Shown one piece after another: positions 20,932 through 30,339 of a stretch of 64,000 nucleotides of DNA. Under the pieces are notes generated by a model. That model was given only the letters and a program-made list of their open reading frames with translations. It did no database searches and was not told the DNA's origin. Made by a program: the position numbers and the translations under genes. The stretch's first letter is position 1. Each line of letters begins with the position of its first letter. This DNA is from Bdellovibrionia bacterium (GTDB lineage: Bacteria > Bdellovibrionota > Bdellovibrionia > Bdellovibrionales > JAGQZY01): contig JAUICP010000008.1 of assembly GCA_030427805.1 (NCBI GenBank), positions 9,075 to 73,074 of the forward strand. The letters are read 5' to 3'.

Positions 20932-22779
20932 ATGTTTAGGCCCATTCATATTTTTGATTTGCAGGCAACTTCTACGTCTCCGGCCTATGGATATATCATT
21001 GAATTTGCCCATGCTTATTACGATCGAGAGCTATCTCAATGGAAGAAGACCGTAGAATTTGTTAAGTTGCCTAAGGACGAGGAATTACCTCGGCACATTC
21101 AAAAAATAACGGGAATCACAGAAGAGGATTTGGCTTGTGGGTGGTCGCAATCGAAGCTCAAATCCTATGTGAAAAACCTAGTCGAGTCGCAGCCTGAGGC
21201 TTTGTATGTCAGTCACTACGCCCAGTTTGAAAAAGCCTTTATTCGGGACCTATTGAGCAAGAAAACTTTTGAATCCATGGAGTGGCTTTGTACACATAAG
21301 TTGTCCAAATTGATATATCCCTTTTTGCCGAGTCACAGTTTAAGAGCCGCTGCTGGCCATGCGGGTTTTTCTTTGGGGGCCTTAAAGAGATCCCATGGCC
21401 AACTCGATGCCAATATTTTTTTATGGCAAAAACTTTATCGAGAAATGAAGGAGCAATTTGCCCTTGAATCTTATGGGGAGCTCGAGGCGTGGATTCCGAA
21501 AAGAAAAAAAGATATTAAGATAATCTATCAAGAGAAGGGGCTCAGTAAGAAGTATTTGAAGATTTCAGATAAGGAGAGATTATCTCTTCCCGATGCCCCT
21601 GGTGTTTATCGGTTTTACAGTGTGGACGGTCGCCTTCTATACATCGGAAAGGCAAAAAGTCTAAAGACGAGAGTAAATAGTTATTTTACAGGCAACCCCA
21701 AGAGGCTTGGTAGGAAGGCGGAGTTGGTTATTCAAATTGCTCGGATTGAATTCGATGTATTGAACACGCCAGTAGAGTCAGCCCTTTACGAGTGCCTGAA
21801 AATCAAGGCCTTTGATCCGCCCTATAATCAGGCGTTGACTCCGAGAAAGCAGAAGCACCTTTATGGATATGATCGAGATCTCAATGCACATCAGGTGGAA
21901 GGAGTCGGGTGCGTGAGTTCGGGCTCCGGAGGTGAGGGTGTCGCGGGAGTTGAGCGCGTGAGTTCGGGGCCTGGAAGTGTGAGAGGTGCGGGAGTTGAGA
22001 GCGTGAGTTCAGGGTCCAGAAGTGCGGGTCGGAATTTACTATTGAGTTTGAAGGCCAGTGAGTTTGAGAGTCTCGATTTTTTACTGAGCTACTACCAGGG
22101 TGCCGGCCTTTCAGAGGAGATTCTTTTTGGTTTTGCTGAGGAGTCGGTCATCGAAGAGGCGATAGAGCTTTTTTATGAAGAGTATCCTCAACTAAAGTCG
22201 GCCGGATCTAAGCGTGACCTACTCGCTTGGTGCTATTCAGTTTTTTTAGATTCGCGCAGCGATTTTGATGAGGACATAGAGGCCATTGAAGATATCGATG
22301 ATGACGAGGATTTGATTGAAGAGATTGAAGAAACTGATTTTGAAAATCCAGAGGACGTAAAGCTAAGTCTCTACAATGTTTGTGCTCATATCGCAAAATC
22401 CCACATGAAAATGAAGTTAATTGGGAGGCTTTTGGATTCCCGCATTCACCTATGTGATGGCAATGAATCGGCTTTGAACTTCGAACTGCAGGATGGGCGA
22501 ATAAAAACTGATTCGAAGGTGGCGTCGGGTTCAGGTTTTTCGCTGGATGCGGAGTTGGAATCAGAGTCGTCGCGAGGTGCGGGGGCGGATTCTGATCTGT
22601 GGGCTGATTTTCAGAAGTTGAGTTCTGCCGATTCATTTGAGTGGTTGCGAGTTTTTTTAACAGAGATTTTTCGTATTCATCGAAGCGAAGCGCCCCATAC
22701 ATGGGTTAAAGTCGAATATCTCACTTCGAATGGTCAGTATCGACCTCTGAATCTCGATTTTTGGTGCCGCTACTTATAG
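20932..22779 (+). CDS. Cho-like nuclease: degenerate DEDD (DnaQ-like) exonuclease domain plus GIY-YIG (UvrC N-terminal-type) domain plus a long divergent C-terminal region
   Basis: The GIY-YIG motif is GVYRFYSVDGRLLYIGKAKSLKTRVNSYF ... ESALYECLKIKAFDPPYNQ. In the exonuclease domain, Exo I reads FDLQAT (Gln where Glu is expected), Exo II reads HYAQFEKAF and Exo III reads HGQLDA. I chose the ATG at 20932, 5-6 nt after AAAAGGAG, over the GTG at 20926. Confidence 0.8.
   Translation: MFRPIHIFDLQATSTSPAYGYIIEFAHAYYDRELSQWKKTVEFVKLPKDEELPRHIQKITGITEEDLACGWSQSKLKSYVKNLVESQPEALYVSHYAQFEKAFIRDLLSKKTFESMEWLCTHKLSKLIYPFLPSHSLRAAAGHAGFSLGALKRSHGQLDANIFLWQKLYREMKEQFALESYGELEAWIPKRKKDIKIIYQEKGLSKKYLKISDKERLSLPDAPGVYRFYSVDGRLLYIGKAKSLKTRVNSYFTGNPKRLGRKAELVIQIARIEFDVLNTPVESALYECLKIKAFDPPYNQALTPRKQKHLYGYDRDLNAHQVEGVGCVSSGSGGEGVAGVERVSSGPGSVRGAGVESVSSGSRSAGRNLLLSLKASEFESLDFLLSYYQGAGLSEEILFGFAEESVIEEAIELFYEEYPQLKSAGSKRDLLAWCYSVFLDSRSDFDEDIEAIEDIDDDEDLIEEIEETDFENPEDVKLSLYNVCAHIAKSHMKMKLIGRLLDSRIHLCDGNESALNFELQDGRIKTDSKVASGSGFSLDAELESESSRGAGADSDLWADFQKLSSADSFEWLRVFLTEIFRIHRSEAPHTWVKVEYLTSNGQYRPLNLDFWCRYL
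21901..22032. repeat. In-frame 45-bp tandem repeat (about 2.9 copies), GC-rich, inside the Cho-like CDS
   Basis: The units encode GVGCVSSGSGGEGVA / GVERVSSGPGSVRGA / GVESVSSGSRSAG. Confidence 0.85.
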
Positions 22780-22858
22780 GTTTATTCCCGTGCATAAAGG
22801 TTTATTTATGCGCAAATAGGTTTATTCCCGTGCATAAAGGTTTATTCCCGTTGCGAAA
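22778..22858. repeat. Four tandem 20-bp units AGGTTTATTCCCGTGCATAA (units 1 and 3 identical, units 2 and 4 variant), able to form hairpins
   Basis: Read directly. The array starts at the stop codon of the Cho-like gene. GCATAAA-GGTTTA-TTTATGC forms a 7-bp stem. TAGGTTT(T/A)TT recurs at about 22901 and 22966. Confidence 0.85.
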
Positions 22859-22991
22859 TTTTTTTAGTTTTTGCCGAGGTCTTGGTTTTCGAAGCGGCGA
22901 TAGGTTTTTTAACAAGCCTTTTCAGTAGGTCATGGTGAAAGGGCTCTTAAACAAGATTTTTAATAGAGGTTTTTTAAGTGCGTCTTGATGA

Positions 22992-23459
22992 TTAGGGATT
23001 CTTAGTCTTTCTAGATTTGTATGGCTTCACGCCCCAGACTTCCGCTTCATTTTGCGAGATATAGTTTCTAGTACTCTCGAAGTCCCGGCCCCAATTCAAT
23101 ACGCGTGTGAAAGGGCTTAACATCCATAGGCCTTTGCCATACTTTCTCGCGAGAATACCTGTGAGTGACCTCGTGAATTTTTTGTAAGACTCCCGATTTT
23201 CAATCCTCATAAGAAGATGAATGTGATCCTTTTGCACACTCAAGTGATAGATTCTTATATGAAACTGAAAGGAGTATTTATTGATATAATACTTAACTTC
23301 GTTTAACTCACTAAAGAGACAGACGGTCTGACTAGATTTGAGTACAAGATGTAGAGCTTTTCTCGTGGCGAGTGGTCGACGGGTTTTTCTTTTTCCGAGA
23401 TTAACTATTCCGCCATGGGATTTTGGAGTTTCGTCTTTGAAGAGTTGTAGCTGTCTCAT
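22992..23459 (-). CDS. IS200/IS605-type HUH (Y1) transposase-like protein, REP-associated tyrosine transposase (RAYT)-like, single copy without IS ends
   Basis: The HUH motif is KDHIHLLMRI and the catalytic-Tyr region is TRNYISQNEAE. The N-terminal block is HGGIVNLGKRKTRRPLATRKALHLVLKS. I chose the start at M52 of the track ORF (ATG 23459), which gives 155 aa, typical for the family. Confidence 0.7.
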   Translation of the reverse strand: MRQLQLFKDETPKSHGGIVNLGKRKTRRPLATRKALHLVLKSSQTVCLFSELNEVKYYINKYSFQFHIRIYHLSVQKDHIHLLMRIENRESYKKFTRSLTGILARKYGKGLWMLSPFTRVLNWGRDFESTRNYISQNEAEVWGVKPYKSRKTKNP

Positions 23460-23901
23460 GGAAATGACTATAACATGGGTTTTTAAAAACTCGTTTTTTG
23501 TCTTTTTCAAAAGTTTGATATCAGCTAGAAAACTCCTGTGAGTCGCGACTAGACTGCCTTCTAGCTTAGCCCCTGCGAGATGTAGTGAGCAACTACTCCC
23601 TCCCTGTCTCAATTTTAATTAATGAATAGAGGACGTTCTCGGGATCAAAAATGACGTCAATTCATTTCTTAAAAGTTTCAGTTTTAGTGAGCTGAAATAT
23701 TTTGGGTGATTCTTGAATATATATAGACGTGGAATCAAAAAAATCAGTCTTTGGGTTTAAAACTGAAGTGGGCCCCATCAAAAAGAACTGGTAGGGCTTT
23801 AAGTAAAAACGTCGCAGCCTCCGGTTAACATTGCAACCCCCGGTTAACATTAATCGCGGGAGAAACTAAGCTTCATTTAATTATTCAAGAAGTGATTGAG
23901 C

Positions 23902-24074: not shown

Positions 24075-24776
24075 TTATAGCAATTCTTCAATATGGGATT
24101 GAACTTCGGTGCGGGTCAGTTGGTGGCCTTCGGGATCATAGGGATCGGTGATTCGTAAAATTCCCTTACCGTATTGAAATTTCGTCTGCGGGCCACGAAC
24201 AAATTGCACGACCTTGAGATTCGAAGCGAGTGCCTGTCTCACTGCCGGATCTTTACTAATTTCGCGAATAACAGATCCAACATCATTAATTGTAGCCATA
24301 AGTCTTCGGCTGGCATCCCCGCCATCTTTAAAAGCCCGCCAATCTACGGCCATATCGACTTTCTTTTTCAGATCGTGAGTTATGACTTTGATCCAGTCTG
24401 CGAGTTTTTTCTGAATTTCTTTGTGTGTCGGAGGTGGGCTCTTTGGAGCCATAATCGCACCGAATGAAATCAAATGGGCAAATTCAGGAGCGTCCAAGAC
24501 CGTAAAGCCAATGATATTCTTCATCTTTACGTACATCGCTCCATTGAGCTCACCATTTTGCCCCTCTGTTTCGAACAAAAGGGTCGATTCGTCGTCACTG
24601 GAAGTGTAATCCAGGAGCCAACCAGTGGCTGTAACCCCATTTACGAGGGTTAGCTGCAATTTTGGCATGGTGATGCCCTCACCGCGTGTCCATTTTTTAC
24701 GCAATAGATGAAGTTCAGTGAGAACCATATCGATTTCTTTGGCTGGTAATTGCGTTATGGACCGATCTGCTGGCAC
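24075..24776 (-). CDS. Hypothetical cytoplasmic protein
   Basis: This is a long ORF with no recognised family. The start is uncertain: GTG at 24776 or the ATG 16 codons downstream. Confidence 0.4.
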   Translation of the reverse strand: MPADRSITQLPAKEIDMVLTELHLLRKKWTRGEGITMPKLQLTLVNGVTATGWLLDYTSSDDESTLLFETEGQNGELNGAMYVKMKNIIGFTVLDAPEFAHLISFGAIMAPKSPPPTHKEIQKKLADWIKVITHDLKKKVDMAVDWRAFKDGGDASRRLMATINDVGSVIREISKDPAVRQALASNLKVVQFVRGPQTKFQYGKGILRITDPYDPEGHQLTRTEVQSHIEELL

Positions 24777-24973: not shown

Positions 24974-25561
24974 TCATCGCTCTTTTTTTTCACTCGACAT
25001 ATCTGCGCGATTATCCAATTCAAGCTCAACGTTTTCAAGTTTTTCCACAAATTCAGCTCCTTTTTCTACTGGTAGCTGATTAGAGCCGACTGCGGACTGT
25101 GCTTTGTCTTTAATCATCTTAAAAAATGCTTTCATCTTGGGTTTAGCGCGATTGATAAGCTTCTGGAATCGACCTTCTTTCAGGTCTTTCGATATTTGAT
25201 TCGATTTATTATTAATTTCATTGGCGTAGCGAGAATAGTCCTTAATATCCCTTTCTTCGCCAGTATTACCCTTAAGATTTTTGCCGTATTCAGCAATCGT
25301 CGTGGTCGCTTCAAAGTCCTCAGCCCCTTCTAGGTAGTCATAGCGACCCTTTTTATTGCCGTTTTGATTGTGAACATTTTTAGCACGGTGGTAGCGGCCT
25401 TGAAGTTTCGCCTTAAAACCATCGAGCCCCTTCTTAGTCATTATTTGTGGGGCATACTTTGGTCCAGCCCAAAAGAATAGAGCAGCGCTGAGGCCGCCGA
25501 TCATCATGAAGGTGAATAACATTCTGAATAATCTCATCATTTCTCTTATCGGCTTTGACAA
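24974..25561 (-). CDS. Membrane-anchored hypothetical protein
   Basis: There is a single N-terminal TM segment (LFTFMMIGGLSAALFFWAG) and a charged, Lys-rich remainder. Confidence 0.4.
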   Translation of the reverse strand: MSKPIREMMRLFRMLFTFMMIGGLSAALFFWAGPKYAPQIMTKKGLDGFKAKLQGRYHRAKNVHNQNGNKKGRYDYLEGAEDFEATTTIAEYGKNLKGNTGEERDIKDYSRYANEINNKSNQISKDLKEGRFQKLINRAKPKMKAFFKMIKDKAQSAVGSNQLPVEKGAEFVEKLENVELELDNRADMSSEKKER

Positions 25562-25642
25562 AATAAAGCCTAAAGAATACCTCAGAATATGCTAAATATT
25601 TAGAAATTGTGAGTGTTTAAGAATGCTACAGAAGGGGTGCTC

Positions 25643-26377
25643 GTGAAGATTGTATTAGTGAGGCACGGTCAGAGTGTTTGGAATAAAGAAAACAAGTTTA
25701 CAGGTTGGTATGATGCCCCTCTTAGTGAGCAGGGCTTTGCTGAGGCGAAGTTGGCCGGTGAGATTCTTAAAGAAGAGAATTTTGTTTTTGATCGAATTTA
25801 TACATCAGTTCTAAAACGAGCCATCATCACCGGCGAAGAAATTCTTCGAGTTATGGATCTTTCGTGGATTCCGGTTGAGAAGGCTTGGCAGCTCAATGAG
25901 AGACATTACGGTGCCTTGATGGGGCTCAACAAAAAAGAAACCGTAGAAAAGCATGGAGCCGAACAAGTCCACATTTGGAGACGTTCTTATAGTACCCCTC
26001 CTCCGGCAATGGATATCGATGATCCTCGGCATCCTCGTTTCGAGGACAAATATAAAAATGTTCCTGCAGACTTATTGCCCACTTGTGAATCTCTAAAAGA
26101 CACCGTCAATCGAGTCATTCCCTATTGGGAGTCAACGATTGCTCCAGCGCTCCAGGCTGGCGAGCGAGTCATTCTTTCGGCCCACGGTAATAGTATTCGT
26201 GCTCTTTACAAATATCTTCTTGATATTTCTGAAGATGAAATCTCCGAGGTCAATATTCCAACGGGTCAACCTCTTGTTATTGAACTTGATAAGCAGCTGA
26301 AGGGGACTAAGGATTATTATCTGGGCGATGCTGAGAAAATTCAGGCCCAAATTAATGAAGTAAAAAATCAAACTTAA
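25643..26377 (+). CDS. gpmA: 2,3-bisphosphoglycerate-dependent phosphoglycerate mutase
   Basis: KIVLVRHGQSVWNKENKFTGWYD, ERHYGAL and SAHGNSIRAL are present, with full-length family resemblance. The GTG at 25643 (GAAGGGG upstream) gives the canonical N-terminus. The track ORF starts at 25613. Confidence 0.93.
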   Translation: MKIVLVRHGQSVWNKENKFTGWYDAPLSEQGFAEAKLAGEILKEENFVFDRIYTSVLKRAIITGEEILRVMDLSWIPVEKAWQLNERHYGALMGLNKKETVEKHGAEQVHIWRRSYSTPPPAMDIDDPRHPRFEDKYKNVPADLLPTCESLKDTVNRVIPYWESTIAPALQAGERVILSAHGNSIRALYKYLLDISEDEISEVNIPTGQPLVIELDKQLKGTKDYYLGDAEKIQAQINEVKNQT

Positions 26378-26444: not shown

Positions 26445-26473
26445 AAAAAAAAGGGCTCTATTGAGCCCTTTTC
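26445..26473. terminator. Bidirectional rho-independent terminator between convergent gpmA and the histone-fold gene
   Basis: AAAAAAAAGGGCTC-TATT-GAGCCCTTTTC has an 8-bp GC-rich stem, an A-run upstream and a T-run downstream. Confidence 0.8.
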
Positions 26474-26495: not shown

Positions 26496-26735
26496 TTAAT
26501 TAGACATGAAGTCGTGTGAACGAACTGTTTTACGACCATTGTGATCAGCTCTTTTTACACCTTGCTCGATGAGCCAGTATACCCAGTCATTAAGACCGTC
26601 AAGAGCATCACCAGCTACGTTAACTCCATGAGCTTTTAAAGCTGCTTTTACTTTACTTCCAACAAGAAGCATTTCACCGCTTGTTTTAGTTTTCTTAGTT
26701 GCCTTCTTCTTTGTAGTTTTCTTCTTCTTAGCCAT
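26496..26735 (-). CDS. Bacterial histone-fold protein (Bd0055-like) with a lysine-rich N-terminal tail
   Basis: The core LLVGSKVKAALKAHGVNVAGDALDGLNDWVYWLIEQGVKRADHNGRKTVRSHDF shows the histone-fold pattern, including GRKTV..D. The first 18 residues are MAKKKKTTKKKATKKTKT. A strong TAAGGAG ribosome-binding site lies 7 nt upstream. Confidence 0.7.
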   Translation of the reverse strand: MAKKKKTTKKKATKKTKTSGEMLLVGSKVKAALKAHGVNVAGDALDGLNDWVYWLIEQGVKRADHNGRKTVRSHDFMSN

Positions 26736-26880
26736 AACACTTACTCCTTAAGACAATTTGGCGTTTAACTTCAAAACTGATGAAGATGAGGATAAGAACA
26801 CTGCTACTACTAATCAAAGAAAAAATGCAAAATGGCGCAAAATAGCGAAAAAAAGTGGTTTAACGCGATTTTAAGAAAAC

Positions 26881-29800
26881 CTAGGCTGCGCGCTCGGGGT
26901 CATCGTCATCATCGCTTGCGAGATCGAAGCTAAAGTCTTCGTCGTCGTCCTCAGAACTATTAGGAAGGGGAGGAGGGACAAAATCGTCATCCTCAGGATC
27001 TTCGTCTTGATGGCCAAAGGCATCCGCTTGGGTTTGTTCGAGGTTCATTTGATCAGGAGTGGGAGGTAAATCGTTTTCCTCTTCCGCCTCGTCGTCGTCA
27101 TTCATGCTTAAATCTTCATCAAATCCCTTAAAGCCATCAAGTTCTTGATGATAGGGGTTTTTCTCGAGGGGCGGTTTGGACACGACCTCGTCGCCATCAC
27201 TTGTGGGTTCATCGGGGAGTTCCAAAAAGCCTTTTTCATCTTCTTTTTCTGGTTGTGGCCCTATCTGTTCCTCGGCGGCAAGCGGCCTTTTCGGTTTCTC
27301 ACTCGCAAAGAGCTCTTTCGGTTCCTCGGCGGCAAGCGGTCTTTTCGGTTTCTCGCTAGCAAGGGGCTCTTCATCCGACTTCAATGTTACTTGGCTCGAG
27401 CTATGATTAGAGTTTACCCCACGAACTTCTTTAGTCTCAGATTTAGCTTTTGCTTCTTTTAATGGCTCTAAATCCCCATCGTGGTCATCCTCGTCGATCG
27501 GTGAGAGAAGGTGATTCTTAATTTCTTTCTTTCGCTCTTCTGCGGTCAAACGTGGTCTTCTTTGTTTTTCTCCGATCTCGATTTCCTTGGTAATTTCATC
27601 GTGATGGAAATTATTTTCTCGGCTCAGAGTGCCCTCATCGACGAGATCAATTCTCCGACGATCTTTCAGAGGCTTCAATTCTCTGGTTATGGTTTGCTCT
27701 TCTGCCTCTTCTTCGGTTGGATCGAAGTCACTAGCAGAATGGTCCTCGCTATTTATTTGACTCGAATGGCTCGGCGGATTCTGCTCTGCAAGAGTAGGGT
27801 CTTCGACTTCACTTGGTACTGGAATCTCGGCCAATTGCACATCATCTTTTTGCATCTGGGTGGTTGTATTGACGGTTTCTTCACTTAAGGTTGATTTTTG
27901 CACAGAATTTGTTTGATTAAAGAGGTCCGTCATTTTCTCAAGATTTCCTGTGCGACTCGTTTGAATCGAAAGGGTGTCTTCATCGACATCTTCGCTTTCG
28001 TCAACTTGCAGTTGAATGATACGGGTAGCAAGTTCAGAGCGTTCGTTAACGTCTAAGCTCTCCTCTGGCAAGTCGACATCGAGTACTGGCTTGTCTTCAG
28101 AATTCAGCGAAGGAATTTTAATCGTGTCGTCACTTTCTTGTTCTTGGCTTTTTGGTGACCCCATGGTCTGAGGATCGTAAAGGCTCGACTGGTTTCTGCC
28201 GCGATTTTTTGAGAGGTAGAGAGCTCGGTCCGCAAGCTTAATAAGCTCATCGACCTTGTCAGTATGCAGAGGGCAGGTTGCTATGCCCAGACTCATTGTG
28301 ACTTTGAGGGTACCACTGTCACTTTCGATATTTAAATTTTCGATGGCCTGCCTAATTCTTTCAGCTTGTTCGAATGCGCTTTGCTCTGGGGTATCTGGAA
28401 GTAGAACAACAAACTCCTCTCCACCATAGCGGGCAGGAATGTCTTGGTCTCTCGATTCGTTCTTGAGTGTTTGGGCAACTCTCTTTAAGACTTCATCTCC
28501 AAGGGCGTGACCGTAAGTATCGTTAAACTTTTTAAAATGATCGACGTCTCCAATGATGACAGAGGTCGGCGATTGGGTGAGGAGAGAGCTATTTACAGCC
28601 TTTTGCAACTGGGCTTTAAAGTAGCGTACATTATTTATTTGCGTTAGTGAGTCCGTGTTGCTCAGGGAGTGAAGTGTCAGGTTTTCTAAAGTGAGCGTCA
28701 TGTGACTTGCAATACCCATCAGAGAATCGACTTCGTCTTCGCTAAAGACTTCCAGTACATTTTGTTTTAGACACTGAAGCGCACCTATAACTTTGTTTCC
28801 GGCGCGAACGGGGATAATTAAAAACCCTTTAACATCTTGGGTCCCTGGCAGAGGGGAGGCCTTTGTGGGTGCATAACTTTGGTTCTGAAAGATAGATATC
28901 TTAATCATGTTCAATAGATTTGGAACTTCAAAGAGATCTCGGCAGTTTCGATCACTAAAGACCTTCATTCCCATATCGTTTTCAGAAACTTCACGGCTTT
29001 TTCTGTATTCGATTCGATCACCGGTGTCGTTGAGCATAAACAGTTCTATTTGCCGATAGCCAAACGACGAAATGATAATTTCCAAAATACTGTTTACGAT
29101 TTTATCTTTGTTCATCGACGCATTGGTGGAGTTTGAGATTTCTAAAAGTAGAGAGCTCTCAAAGAGTTTGCGATCTAAATCTTGATTCACTTTTCTTAGG
29201 GCGTCGGTTTGATTTCTGAGCTCTGCTGTGCGCTTCAGTTTTTCTTCGAGTTCGACCCTCAGTTTTTGCGTCATCCGATTAAATGTGGTGCCAAGCTCAC
29301 CAAACTCACCCTTGTCTTCTATTTGAATTTGCGTGTCGAGGTGACCCTCGGCAATTCTTCGCGCTCCTTCGGTCAAGAGTCGGATTGGTGAAGACAATTT
29401 TTTTGATAATTTATAGCCGACAAATATAGAAACTAGGAGAGAGGATACAAAGGTCAGAATCAAAATCAAATTGAGCGAGTTTCGTTCTTTGTTATACATT
29501 GTGTGAGGGACTAAGTTGACAAGATAGAAATTGCCCAGAGTGTTCCCTTGTTCATCATGTAAGAAGGGATGGCCTGTTATCGAGAATTTAAAGTCGGAAT
29601 ACTCTTGTTCTAAGTGAGTGCCAATGCTTTCCATTTTTGAAAGTGAAACTACCAGAGGTGTTTGAATGTCCTCAGATGAAATTTCGTGGAGCCAAGGAGT
29701 CTTCCCCTTTTCCCAAATGACGATGGCTACGTCACCACGAATGTATTTCTTTACACTGTTTAGAAATTCACCATCGAGTTCGTAGCCGCTCACAATGTAC

Positions 29801-30339
29801 TGGTATCCAGTTTCTCTGGTGATACGTTGTTCAAGGCGGTTGGCAGCCACAAAAAAGTACTTCGAGCCAATTTTTATAATATCTGTGGCAAAGTCGCCCC
29901 TTTCAGCTTTGCGAATGAGGCTGGGGCTACTAAACATTTGGTAGTTATTAGCGCCAGATTCAGCCAGGTACATATTGTTTTTGTCGACCACTGCGATGAG
30001 CCCGCTAAAAAGACTCGCTTTTTTGTTGGCAAGATATTGAGAAGTAAATTTAGTTTTTTCTCTGTAGTCTTTGCGAAGATAGTAGATCAGTGAAGGATCG
30101 GACTTGAGGTTTGCAATGTCAGTTCTCAGTAAATCGGCTTTTGAATTGATGACTTGTAAAAGGGATTCGCTATTAAATTCAAGGTCGTCTTGAATATTCT
30201 TGTTTACCTGTGCGTTGAATTTGTAGTGAACAAACGCAAAGGTAATAACTTGGATTCCTGTTATTAGAACCAAGAAAGGGACTAAGAGTTTTACGTGAAC
30301 TCCCAGTCTAAAAATGTCACTTTTAAAAAGTGATTTCAA
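26881..30339 (-). CDS. Membrane sensor diguanylate cyclase (periplasmic sensor, HAMP, GAF-like and GGDEF domains) with a roughly 440-aa acidic C-terminal extension
   Basis: Two TM segments flank a roughly 270-aa loop. The HAMP region is PIRLLTEGARRIAEGHLD. The GGDEF active site is RYGGEEFVVLL, with an RxxD I-site (RDQD) 5 residues upstream. The tail is rich in D, E, S and P. Confidence 0.9.
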   Translation of the reverse strand: MKSLFKSDIFRLGVHVKLLVPFLVLITGIQVITFAFVHYKFNAQVNKNIQDDLEFNSESLLQVINSKADLLRTDIANLKSDPSLIYYLRKDYREKTKFTSQYLANKKASLFSGLIAVVDKNNMYLAESGANNYQMFSSPSLIRKAERGDFATDIIKIGSKYFFVAANRLEQRITRETGYQYIVSGYELDGEFLNSVKKYIRGDVAIVIWEKGKTPWLHEISSEDIQTPLVVSLSKMESIGTHLEQEYSDFKFSITGHPFLHDEQGNTLGNFYLVNLVPHTMYNKERNSLNLILILTFVSSLLVSIFVGYKLSKKLSSPIRLLTEGARRIAEGHLDTQIQIEDKGEFGELGTTFNRMTQKLRVELEEKLKRTAELRNQTDALRKVNQDLDRKLFESSLLLEISNSTNASMNKDKIVNSILEIIISSFGYRQIELFMLNDTGDRIEYRKSREVSENDMGMKVFSDRNCRDLFEVPNLLNMIKISIFQNQSYAPTKASPLPGTQDVKGFLIIPVRAGNKVIGALQCLKQNVLEVFSEDEVDSLMGIASHMTLTLENLTLHSLSNTDSLTQINNVRYFKAQLQKAVNSSLLTQSPTSVIIGDVDHFKKFNDTYGHALGDEVLKRVAQTLKNESRDQDIPARYGGEEFVVLLPDTPEQSAFEQAERIRQAIENLNIESDSGTLKVTMSLGIATCPLHTDKVDELIKLADRALYLSKNRGRNQSSLYDPQTMGSPKSQEQESDDTIKIPSLNSEDKPVLDVDLPEESLDVNERSELATRIIQLQVDESEDVDEDTLSIQTSRTGNLEKMTDLFNQTNSVQKSTLSEETVNTTTQMQKDDVQLAEIPVPSEVEDPTLAEQNPPSHSSQINSEDHSASDFDPTEEEAEEQTITRELKPLKDRRRIDLVDEGTLSRENNFHHDEITKEIEIGEKQRRPRLTAEERKKEIKNHLLSPIDEDDHDGDLEPLKEAKAKSETKEVRGVNSNHSSSQVTLKSDEEPLASEKPKRPLAAEEPKELFASEKPKRPLAAEEQIGPQPEKEDEKGFLELPDEPTSDGDEVVSKPPLEKNPYHQELDGFKGFDEDLSMNDDDEAEEENDLPPTPDQMNLEQTQADAFGHQDEDPEDDDFVPPPLPNSSEDDDEDFSFDLASDDDDDPERAA
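27268..27375. repeat. 54-bp in-frame tandem duplication in the acidic tail of the GGDEF protein
   Basis: TTCCTCGGCGGCAAGCGG(C/T)CTTTTCGGTTTCTC... occurs twice, encoding (A/L)ASEKPKRPLAAEE twice. Confidence 0.85.

Follow-up and report, generated by a model that had tools for sequence, protein, structure and literature searches.

Bacterial histones were recognised only recently, and detailed work has covered two of them, the dimeric HBb and the tetrameric HLp, in each case in a form without a long tail. HLp from Leptospira perolatii (9QT0, 9QT1 and 9QT2; Hu et al., Nat Commun 2025, PMC12701072) forms a stable tetramer, wraps about 60 bp of DNA and reorganises the nucleoid in E. coli. Its DNA contacts are A13, S14, K15, K17, K21, G29 and T57 (PMC12701072), and the form studied has 63 residues, about 7 of them disordered at the N-terminus. 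HBb (Bd0055; 8CMP, 8FVX and 9EZZ) has a singlet alpha3-truncated fold with an RKTV loop 2 and an RD clamp. It is a strict dimer and lacks a Lys-rich tail.

According to Schwab et al. 2024 (PMC11390915), bacterial FtF histones commonly bear tails, which are not conserved in sequence and are mostly positively charged, while HBb-type bacterial dimers, HBb included, are without the Arg and Asn of the FtF interface. The same work reports that, in one archaeal FtF histone, the terminal carboxylate is part of the interface, and places FtF histones in Spirochaetota, Planctomycetota, Bdellovibrionota (in the class Bacteriovoracia) and Myxococcota. A full-text literature search on FtF histone tails found no experimentally characterised tailed bacterial histone; it brought up Schwab et al. 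2024 with its preprint, the HLp paper and a preprint about the archaeal histone HTkC.

Here we describe a histone gene in the window, by which we mean the whole 64,000-nt stretch of DNA that was analysed. The host is an uncultured bacterium; NCBI labels its metagenome-assembled genome (MAG), and those of its nearest relatives, as Bdellovibrionia and Pseudobdellovibrionaceae. The gene is a clean and compact example of the commonest bacterial histone form, the tailed FtF. Since the family and the positive charge of its tails had been described in 2024 (PMC11390915), the gene adds little as a discovery. Its parts are the following:

26496..26735, minus strand: histone gene, 79 aa plus stop codon, assigned to the FtF type of alpha3-truncated histones with an N-terminal tail
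26676..26735, minus strand: disordered tail, codons 1-20, MAKKKKTTKKKATKKTKTSG, which has 10 Lys and lacks acidic residues (pI 10.95)
26499..26675, minus strand: histone-fold core, codons 21-79 (59 residues), with alpha1 at residues 26-34, alpha2 at 42-65 and a one-turn alpha3 at 73-75

In the list of open reading frames, translation from the ATG of this ORF gives MAKKKKTTKKKATKKTKTSGEMLLVGSKVKAALKAHGVNVAGDALDGLNDWVYWLIEQGVKRADHNGRKTVRSHDFMSN. We found 1744 homologues in databases at E<=1e-3 (best 2.7e-40), which, together with a PDB match at E = 5.6e-12, places the ORF far beyond chance. Database names in the family are mostly missing or read 'hypothetical protein'; JGI alone gives some as 'histone H3/H4'. 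Pfam returned no histone match above cut-off for the window protein (TAF10 at E = 0.17 was the sole match), and the NCBIfam model archaea_histone scored 15.4 bits, below its cut-off of 50. Standard annotation thus misses the family, and a dedicated profile is needed. For the same reason, the family placement rests on comparison with PDB sequences and structures. The phmmer search against PDB sequences gave these matches:

HLp, Leptospira perolatii (9QT0), bacterial FtF tetramer: E = 5.6e-12, 48.7 bits
HBb/Bd0055 (8CMP, 8FVX), bacterial dimer: E about 6e-5, 26.5 bits
HTkC (9F2C), archaeal FtF: E = 0.006, 20.1 bits
HHoB, Asgard histone, nucleosomal: E = 0.01, 19.3 bits

A single-chain AlphaFold2 model, built from an alignment of 29 family members, has a mean pLDDT of 82.6, with 91-96 in the core and 53-57 in the tail. 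In the model alpha2 is short and alpha3 makes about one turn, as in alpha3-truncated histones. Foldseek against the PDB likewise returned alpha3-truncated histones (HLp, HBb and HTkC) as its top matches. The best was HLp (9QT1/9QT0; TM 0.95, rmsd 0.6-0.7 Å, identity 48-49%), followed by HTkC (TM 0.86) and HBb (TM 0.82-0.86, identity 37-38%). Within the window, tblastn with the HLp core finds the gene at 1.4e-14, whereas the HBb core does not find it at E<=10; no second histone gene in the window came up in searches with the cores of the window protein, HBb and HLp.

The PDB match to HLp, the AlphaFold2 model and Foldseek therefore agree with the first-pass annotation that the gene encodes a bacterial histone-fold protein. 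Its further suggestion, that the core matches Bd0055, was not supported: that match is the weaker one in bits, TM, identity and tblastn, and the FtF residues are present. With 48.7 bits to the FtF member HLp, 26.5 to HBb and 19 to Asgard nucleosomal histones, the window protein is, by sequence and predicted structure, an FtF-type (HLp-like) alpha3-truncated histone and not one of the Bd0055 type.

The individual residues can be compared through the phmmer alignment to HLp, which has an offset of +13; the roles of the HLp residues are taken from PMC12701072. The tetramer-interface residues R49, N53 and R55 of HLp (R48 and N52 of the FtF HMM) correspond to R62, N66 and R68, all three invariant in 29 family members. 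The RD clamp R55-D62 becomes R68-D75, with D75 invariant as well in the 29-sequence alignment. The first-pass annotation had pointed to a GRKTV..D signature of histone folds, and RKTV...D is indeed there: R68-K69-T70-V71...D75, which carries the loop-2 RxTxxxxD motif, does not vary among the 29 relatives. In loop 2 the window protein has RKTV, as do canonical histones and HBb, where HLp has RTTV. The DNA contacts of HLp map to G26, S27, K28, K30, K34, G42 and T70, so that S14, K15, K17, K21, G29 and T57 of HLp are conserved. Among the lysines of alpha1, K28 and K30 (K15 and K17 in HLp) are invariant in the 29 members and K34 (K21 in HLp) is at least 90% conserved. HLp, the best match in both sequence and structure (48-50% identity), thus resembles the window protein in its short alpha2, one-turn alpha3, R/N/R interface and RD clamp.

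Some differences from HLp were also found. At two interface positions S52 is replaced by H65, and T61 by H74, a His that is invariant in this family. Three extra C-terminal residues (MSN) follow F76, while HLp stops at the equivalent Phe, F63, and these residues could give the interface a geometry different from that of HLp. The window protein has a 20-residue tail of charge +10. Finally, the gene neighbourhood of HLp is different: there is neither an SMC nor a MAP gene at the histone locus here. From the three conserved interface residues and the similarity of the predicted fold to HLp (TM 0.95), we infer a tetrameric state.

The main competing reading is an HBb/Bd0055-type dimer that bends or coats DNA and differs from Bd0055 only in the added tail. 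We consider it unlikely. The HBb match is significant (E about 6e-5, TM 0.82-0.86), HBb comes from the same phylum and shares the short alpha2 and one-turn alpha3, and the host MAG is labelled as class Bdellovibrionia, to which Schwab et al. 2024 (PMC11390915) assign dimer histones. Nevertheless, HLp matches better (48.7 against 26.5 bits, 48-49% against 37-38% identity), and tblastn with the HBb core leaves the gene undetected. Moreover, the Arg and Asn that are missing from dimer histones are invariant here, at R62 and N66, where HBb has Ser and Asp. A Bd0055/HBb-type dimer identity was rejected on the better HLp match and the presence of this pair. A paper on Bacteriovorax chromatin (PMC11789641) was also set aside as a description of the window protein, since that strain has a doublet histone.

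The tail accounts for nearly all of the charge of the protein. Its net charge is +10 compared with +1 for the core, which has 8 basic and 7 acidic residues; this would amount to about +40 per tetramer. Residues 1-20 are without secondary structure in the AlphaFold2 model (pLDDT 53-57) and helix alpha1 begins at residue 26, in agreement with the lysine-rich tail of 18 residues read earlier from the letters. The gene is accompanied by the following candidate signals for its expression:

26744..26749, minus strand: Shine-Dalgarno motif AAGGAG, 8 nt ahead of the ATG, found in relatives too in front of the tail start
26670..26672, minus strand: internal ATG (M22), the only possible alternative start, with a tailless product of 58 aa
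26789..26817, minus strand: promoter-like TTGATT-N17-TATCCT, a putative promoter, from comparison with the diverged relative L006
26819-26835, minus strand: T-rich stretch upstream of the promoter-like element
26448..26473, minus strand: intrinsic terminator hairpin with U8, common to the convergent gpmA-like gene

No start-capable codon lies in frame 5′ of M1, which follows a stop in the same frame, and M22 is the first such codon downstream. A main product without the lysine tract would therefore have to start at M22 as a tailless histone, alone or as one of two isoforms, and we regard this as very improbable. The in-frame ATG lies at the very beginning of the ordered fold and is highly conserved, and the HLp authors dropped a longer annotated N-terminus on Shine-Dalgarno grounds (PMC12701072). 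Here, however, AAGGAG stands 8 nt before M1, a ribosome-binding site of the consensus strength noted in the first pass, and the 21 nt before M22 (AAAACTAAAACAAGCGGTGAA) have no Shine-Dalgarno motif at usable spacing.

The same distribution is found across the family. In 78 loci from representative genomes of different species, start codons were chosen by their Shine-Dalgarno motif. At 70 of them the motif stands before the chosen start (for tailed loci, the first tail codon), and at 1 before the internal Met equivalent to M22. Short-tailed homologues that start 3-5 residues upstream keep this Met inside the protein, so M22 looks structural rather than a start. Met-Ala at the protein start is at least 90% conserved in the 29-member alignment. 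The frame of the tail is open and Lys-rich in all relatives with diverged tails. Between the window tail and that of L006 there are two 3-nt indels as well as synonymous changes of Lys codons; since the indels are multiples of three, the reading frame is maintained. All of this favours the tailed start, as first read, over one downstream of the lysine tract, and on these sequence comparisons the tail is very probably translated.

The promoter-like hexamers and their 17-nt spacing are identical in L006, and the sequence of the spacer is unrelated. The element agrees with the consensus at 8 of 12 positions, one fewer than the threshold of 9 used in our sigma-70 promoter scan, which at that threshold found nothing. 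Transcription would start near 26782. In a biofloc metatranscriptome, a contig of 151 nt is a perfect match to 26629-26778; it begins at 26778, just 3′ of the inferred transcription start, and covers tail codons and 43 nt of leader. One RNA run has the region, in 7 short contigs over 20 kb, with one contig on the histone 5′ end, a coverage too thin for ranking expression, and this single low-depth contig could be DNA carry-over. High expression, as suggested in the first-pass annotation, is plausible from the signals, with one 151-nt metatranscriptome contig as the evidence for transcription itself.

At the other end of the gene, the hairpin has a G+C-rich stem of 11 bp and a loop of 4 nt, followed by U8 on the strand of the histone gene. 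The 65-nt stretch that contains it folds at -20.2 kcal/mol (z = -4.74 versus shuffles). On the opposite strand the hairpin lies about 70 nt past the gpmA-like gene and is followed by TTTT only. The proposed bidirectional terminator is accordingly plausible, with the weaker signal in the direction of the gpmA-like gene. An Rfam scan of the whole window gave no match.

Close relatives of the locus were compared at the level of DNA and protein. The DNA identity of the window is about 99% with a contig of GCA_041259675.1 and about 90% with GCA_030424665.1, a MAG of Bdellovibrionia bacterium isolate 2_bin.24. The histone coding sequence has 4 synonymous and 0 non-synonymous differences from that of GCA_030424665.1. 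In L006 the histone core is 95% identical, compared with 37-77% for the neighbouring proteins. As judged from these sequence differences, the protein is under strong purifying selection within this lineage, and this includes the tail. Its clear expression signals, and a protein that is identical across strains with flanks about 90% identical, make the gene a reasonable construct for probing tails.

Surveying the homologues for N-terminal tails, a check proposed with the first-pass annotation, we found that such tails are common and rich in Lys, Ala and Thr. In the window protein and the 120 best-scoring of the 1744 homologues, all 121 sequences have a Lys/Ala/Thr-rich N-terminal tail. A core-start pattern parsed 114 of these, with tails of 13-51 aa (median 21), and the seven sequences missed by the pattern likewise start with a Lys-rich tail. 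Tails are at least 30% Lys or Arg in 112 of the 114 parsed sequences, with 6 acidic residues overall and a pooled composition of 42% K, 24% A and 10% T.

A second survey used one genome per species. A relative was found in 449 genomes, of which 80 were kept, with the labels Bdellovibrionota, Planctomycetota, Myxococcota, Acidobacteriota, Elusimicrobiota and Krumholzibacteriota, and these provided the 78 loci analysed, which span at least six phylum labels. Tails of at least 10 aa with a net charge of at least +4 occur at 45 of the 78 loci. Tails shorter than 10 residues occur at 30 of the 78, many Planctomycetota and Elusimicrobiota copies beginning MSKEM.., MADQEM.. or MAKKM.. The tail, which had at first been taken as a difference from Bd0055, is therefore the usual state of the family (121/121 sequences; 45/78 loci), as reported in 2024. 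The window protein and its relatives show the same tail traits as the FtF class of Schwab et al. 2024. As additions to that study we would list the labels Bdellovibrionia/Pseudobdellovibrionaceae as well as Acidobacteriota, Elusimicrobiota and Krumholzibacteriota, all of which are labels attached to the sequences.

Some further observations come from the same loci (L005-L084). Tail length ranges from 1 to 37 residues in the family, in a pattern that varies by phylum label. Krumholzibacteriota and most Bdellovibrionota copies have long, Lys-rich tails. Nearly tailless or slightly acidic copies are found in Elusimicrobiota (all seven) and Planctomycetota (many). GTG serves as the start codon of several tails. 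Two loci (L036 and L046) have 43-residue non-basic extensions, which are probably wrong start choices by our heuristic. One MAG labelled Deltaproteobacteria (JACRCT01) has two closely similar histone copies on two contigs (L037 and L041); these could be paralogues or could reflect strain heterogeneity in the bin.

The tail had also been called eukaryote-like. This description fits its charge and disorder, residues 1-20 being a long, disordered and positively charged N-terminal extension. It does not fit its sequence: there is no H3/H4-type motif in the tail (for example no ARTK or GKGG), the 29-member alignment and the 78 loci show no conserved tail motif, and beyond MAKKK the tail sequences of even close bacterial relatives cannot be aligned. 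Eukaryotic core-histone tails and Asgard archaeal tails are likewise N-terminal, disordered, positively charged and placed before alpha1. They share no motif with the tails of the window family, which differ freely even from one close relative to another. We rejected eukaryotic ancestry for the tail because tails vary in sequence and length within the family. From the sequences, this variability suggests low-complexity expansion, with no sign of an ancestry common with eukaryotic tails, and the resemblance to eukaryotic and Asgard tails is most simply convergent.

An analogy in composition is offered by the Lys/Ala/Pro-rich 'H1-like' extensions, found at the N-terminus of Deinococcus HU, at the C-terminus of mycobacterial HupB, in chlamydial Hc1 and in the C-terminal domain of histone H1. 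These are low-complexity, disordered and strongly basic segments on a small DNA-binding fold, and the window tail is similar to them. Nonetheless, the folded domains are unrelated, and the tails of the window family are N-terminal, Thr-rich and Pro-poor; no homology is implied.

Taken with the subfamily placement, we consider it likely that the window protein is a nucleoid-organising alpha3-truncated histone of the FtF subfamily that forms a DNA-wrapping tetramer. Two chains would form a histone handshake dimer, and two dimers would close into a homotetramer (a torus) via the alpha2 end, loop 2 and alpha3, with contacts from R62, N66, R68 and F76 (R49, N53, R55 and F63 in HLp). About 60 bp of DNA would run around the rim without sequence specificity, as for HLp. 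The predicted DNA contacts are the helix-end motif G26-S27-K28, K30 and K34 of alpha1, and loops 1 and 2 (G42 and K69-T70). The tail leaves the modelled fold right beside the G26-S27-K28 contact. It would most likely lie along the wrapped or neighbouring DNA, where it could neutralise phosphates and raise affinity, and this may lead to tighter compaction or to bridging between neighbouring tetramers. Both the wrapping and the role of the tail are argued by analogy with HLp and with other basic tails.

It is possible, although we find it doubtful, that the long Lys/Thr-rich tail gives this FtF branch a property absent from the tail-poor HLp. Such a property may be H1-like charge neutralisation that bridges tetramers and leaves the nucleoid hyper-condensed, or it may be a reversible switch, by Lys acetylation or Thr phosphorylation, tied to the life cycle of the host. 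In a weaker variant, the near-invariant internal Met may allow a tailless isoform, with the isoform ratio tuning compaction. If the tail acted as such a switch or in such condensation, bacteria would have evolved, independently of eukaryotes, their own version of chromatin regulation through tails.

The genes around the histone locus are the following:

26881-30339, minus strand: HAMP-GGDEF diguanylate cyclase, lying immediately upstream of the histone gene
25613..26377, convergent to the histone gene: gpmA-like His_Phos_1 (phosphoglycerate-mutase-like) gene
24974-25561, minus strand: 195-aa ORF, no Pfam match, syntenic with the histone locus in relatives
24075-24776, minus strand: 233-aa ORF, no Pfam match, syntenic with the histone locus in relatives
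22992..23612, minus strand: ORF with an IS200-like Y1 transposase domain

These neighbours (a GGDEF cyclase, a phosphoglycerate-mutase-like gene and hypotheticals) offer no chromatin context, and Lys-rich disordered tails are also found on ribosomal and RNA-binding proteins; still, a main job other than chromosome packaging, as a specific regulator, an RNA- or ribosome-binding basic protein or a factor that a predatory host delivers to prey DNA, is highly unlikely, given that the protein has no signal peptide and no extra domain, that the HLp DNA-contact residues are conserved, that the Leptospira and Bdellovibrio histones are both abundant nucleoid proteins, and that the extreme conservation and the strong translation signals are in keeping with a structural protein of high abundance.

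In the diverged relative L006 the genes stand in the same order: GGDEF, histone, gpmA-like gene and two hypotheticals. Identity of the 233-aa protein is 100% to its counterpart in the strain whose flanking DNA is about 90% identical and 77% to that in L006; for the 195-aa protein it is only 37% in L006. At the C-terminus of the HAMP-GGDEF protein, about 430 aa form a strongly acidic extension with a duplicated ...SEKPKRPLAAEE... segment, and its residues 721-1152 are 24-31% Asp/Glu with a net charge of about -78. The presence of an acidic disordered protein beside a very basic one may be a coincidence, and we found no evidence of functional coupling between the GGDEF and histone genes, the gene order being kept in one diverged relative. 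Finally, in one metatranscriptome contig, which comes from a slightly diverged strain, 22150 is followed at once by 22889 and 738 nt (22151-22888) are absent, which suggests a strain-level insertion or deletion adjoining the Y1 transposase gene.
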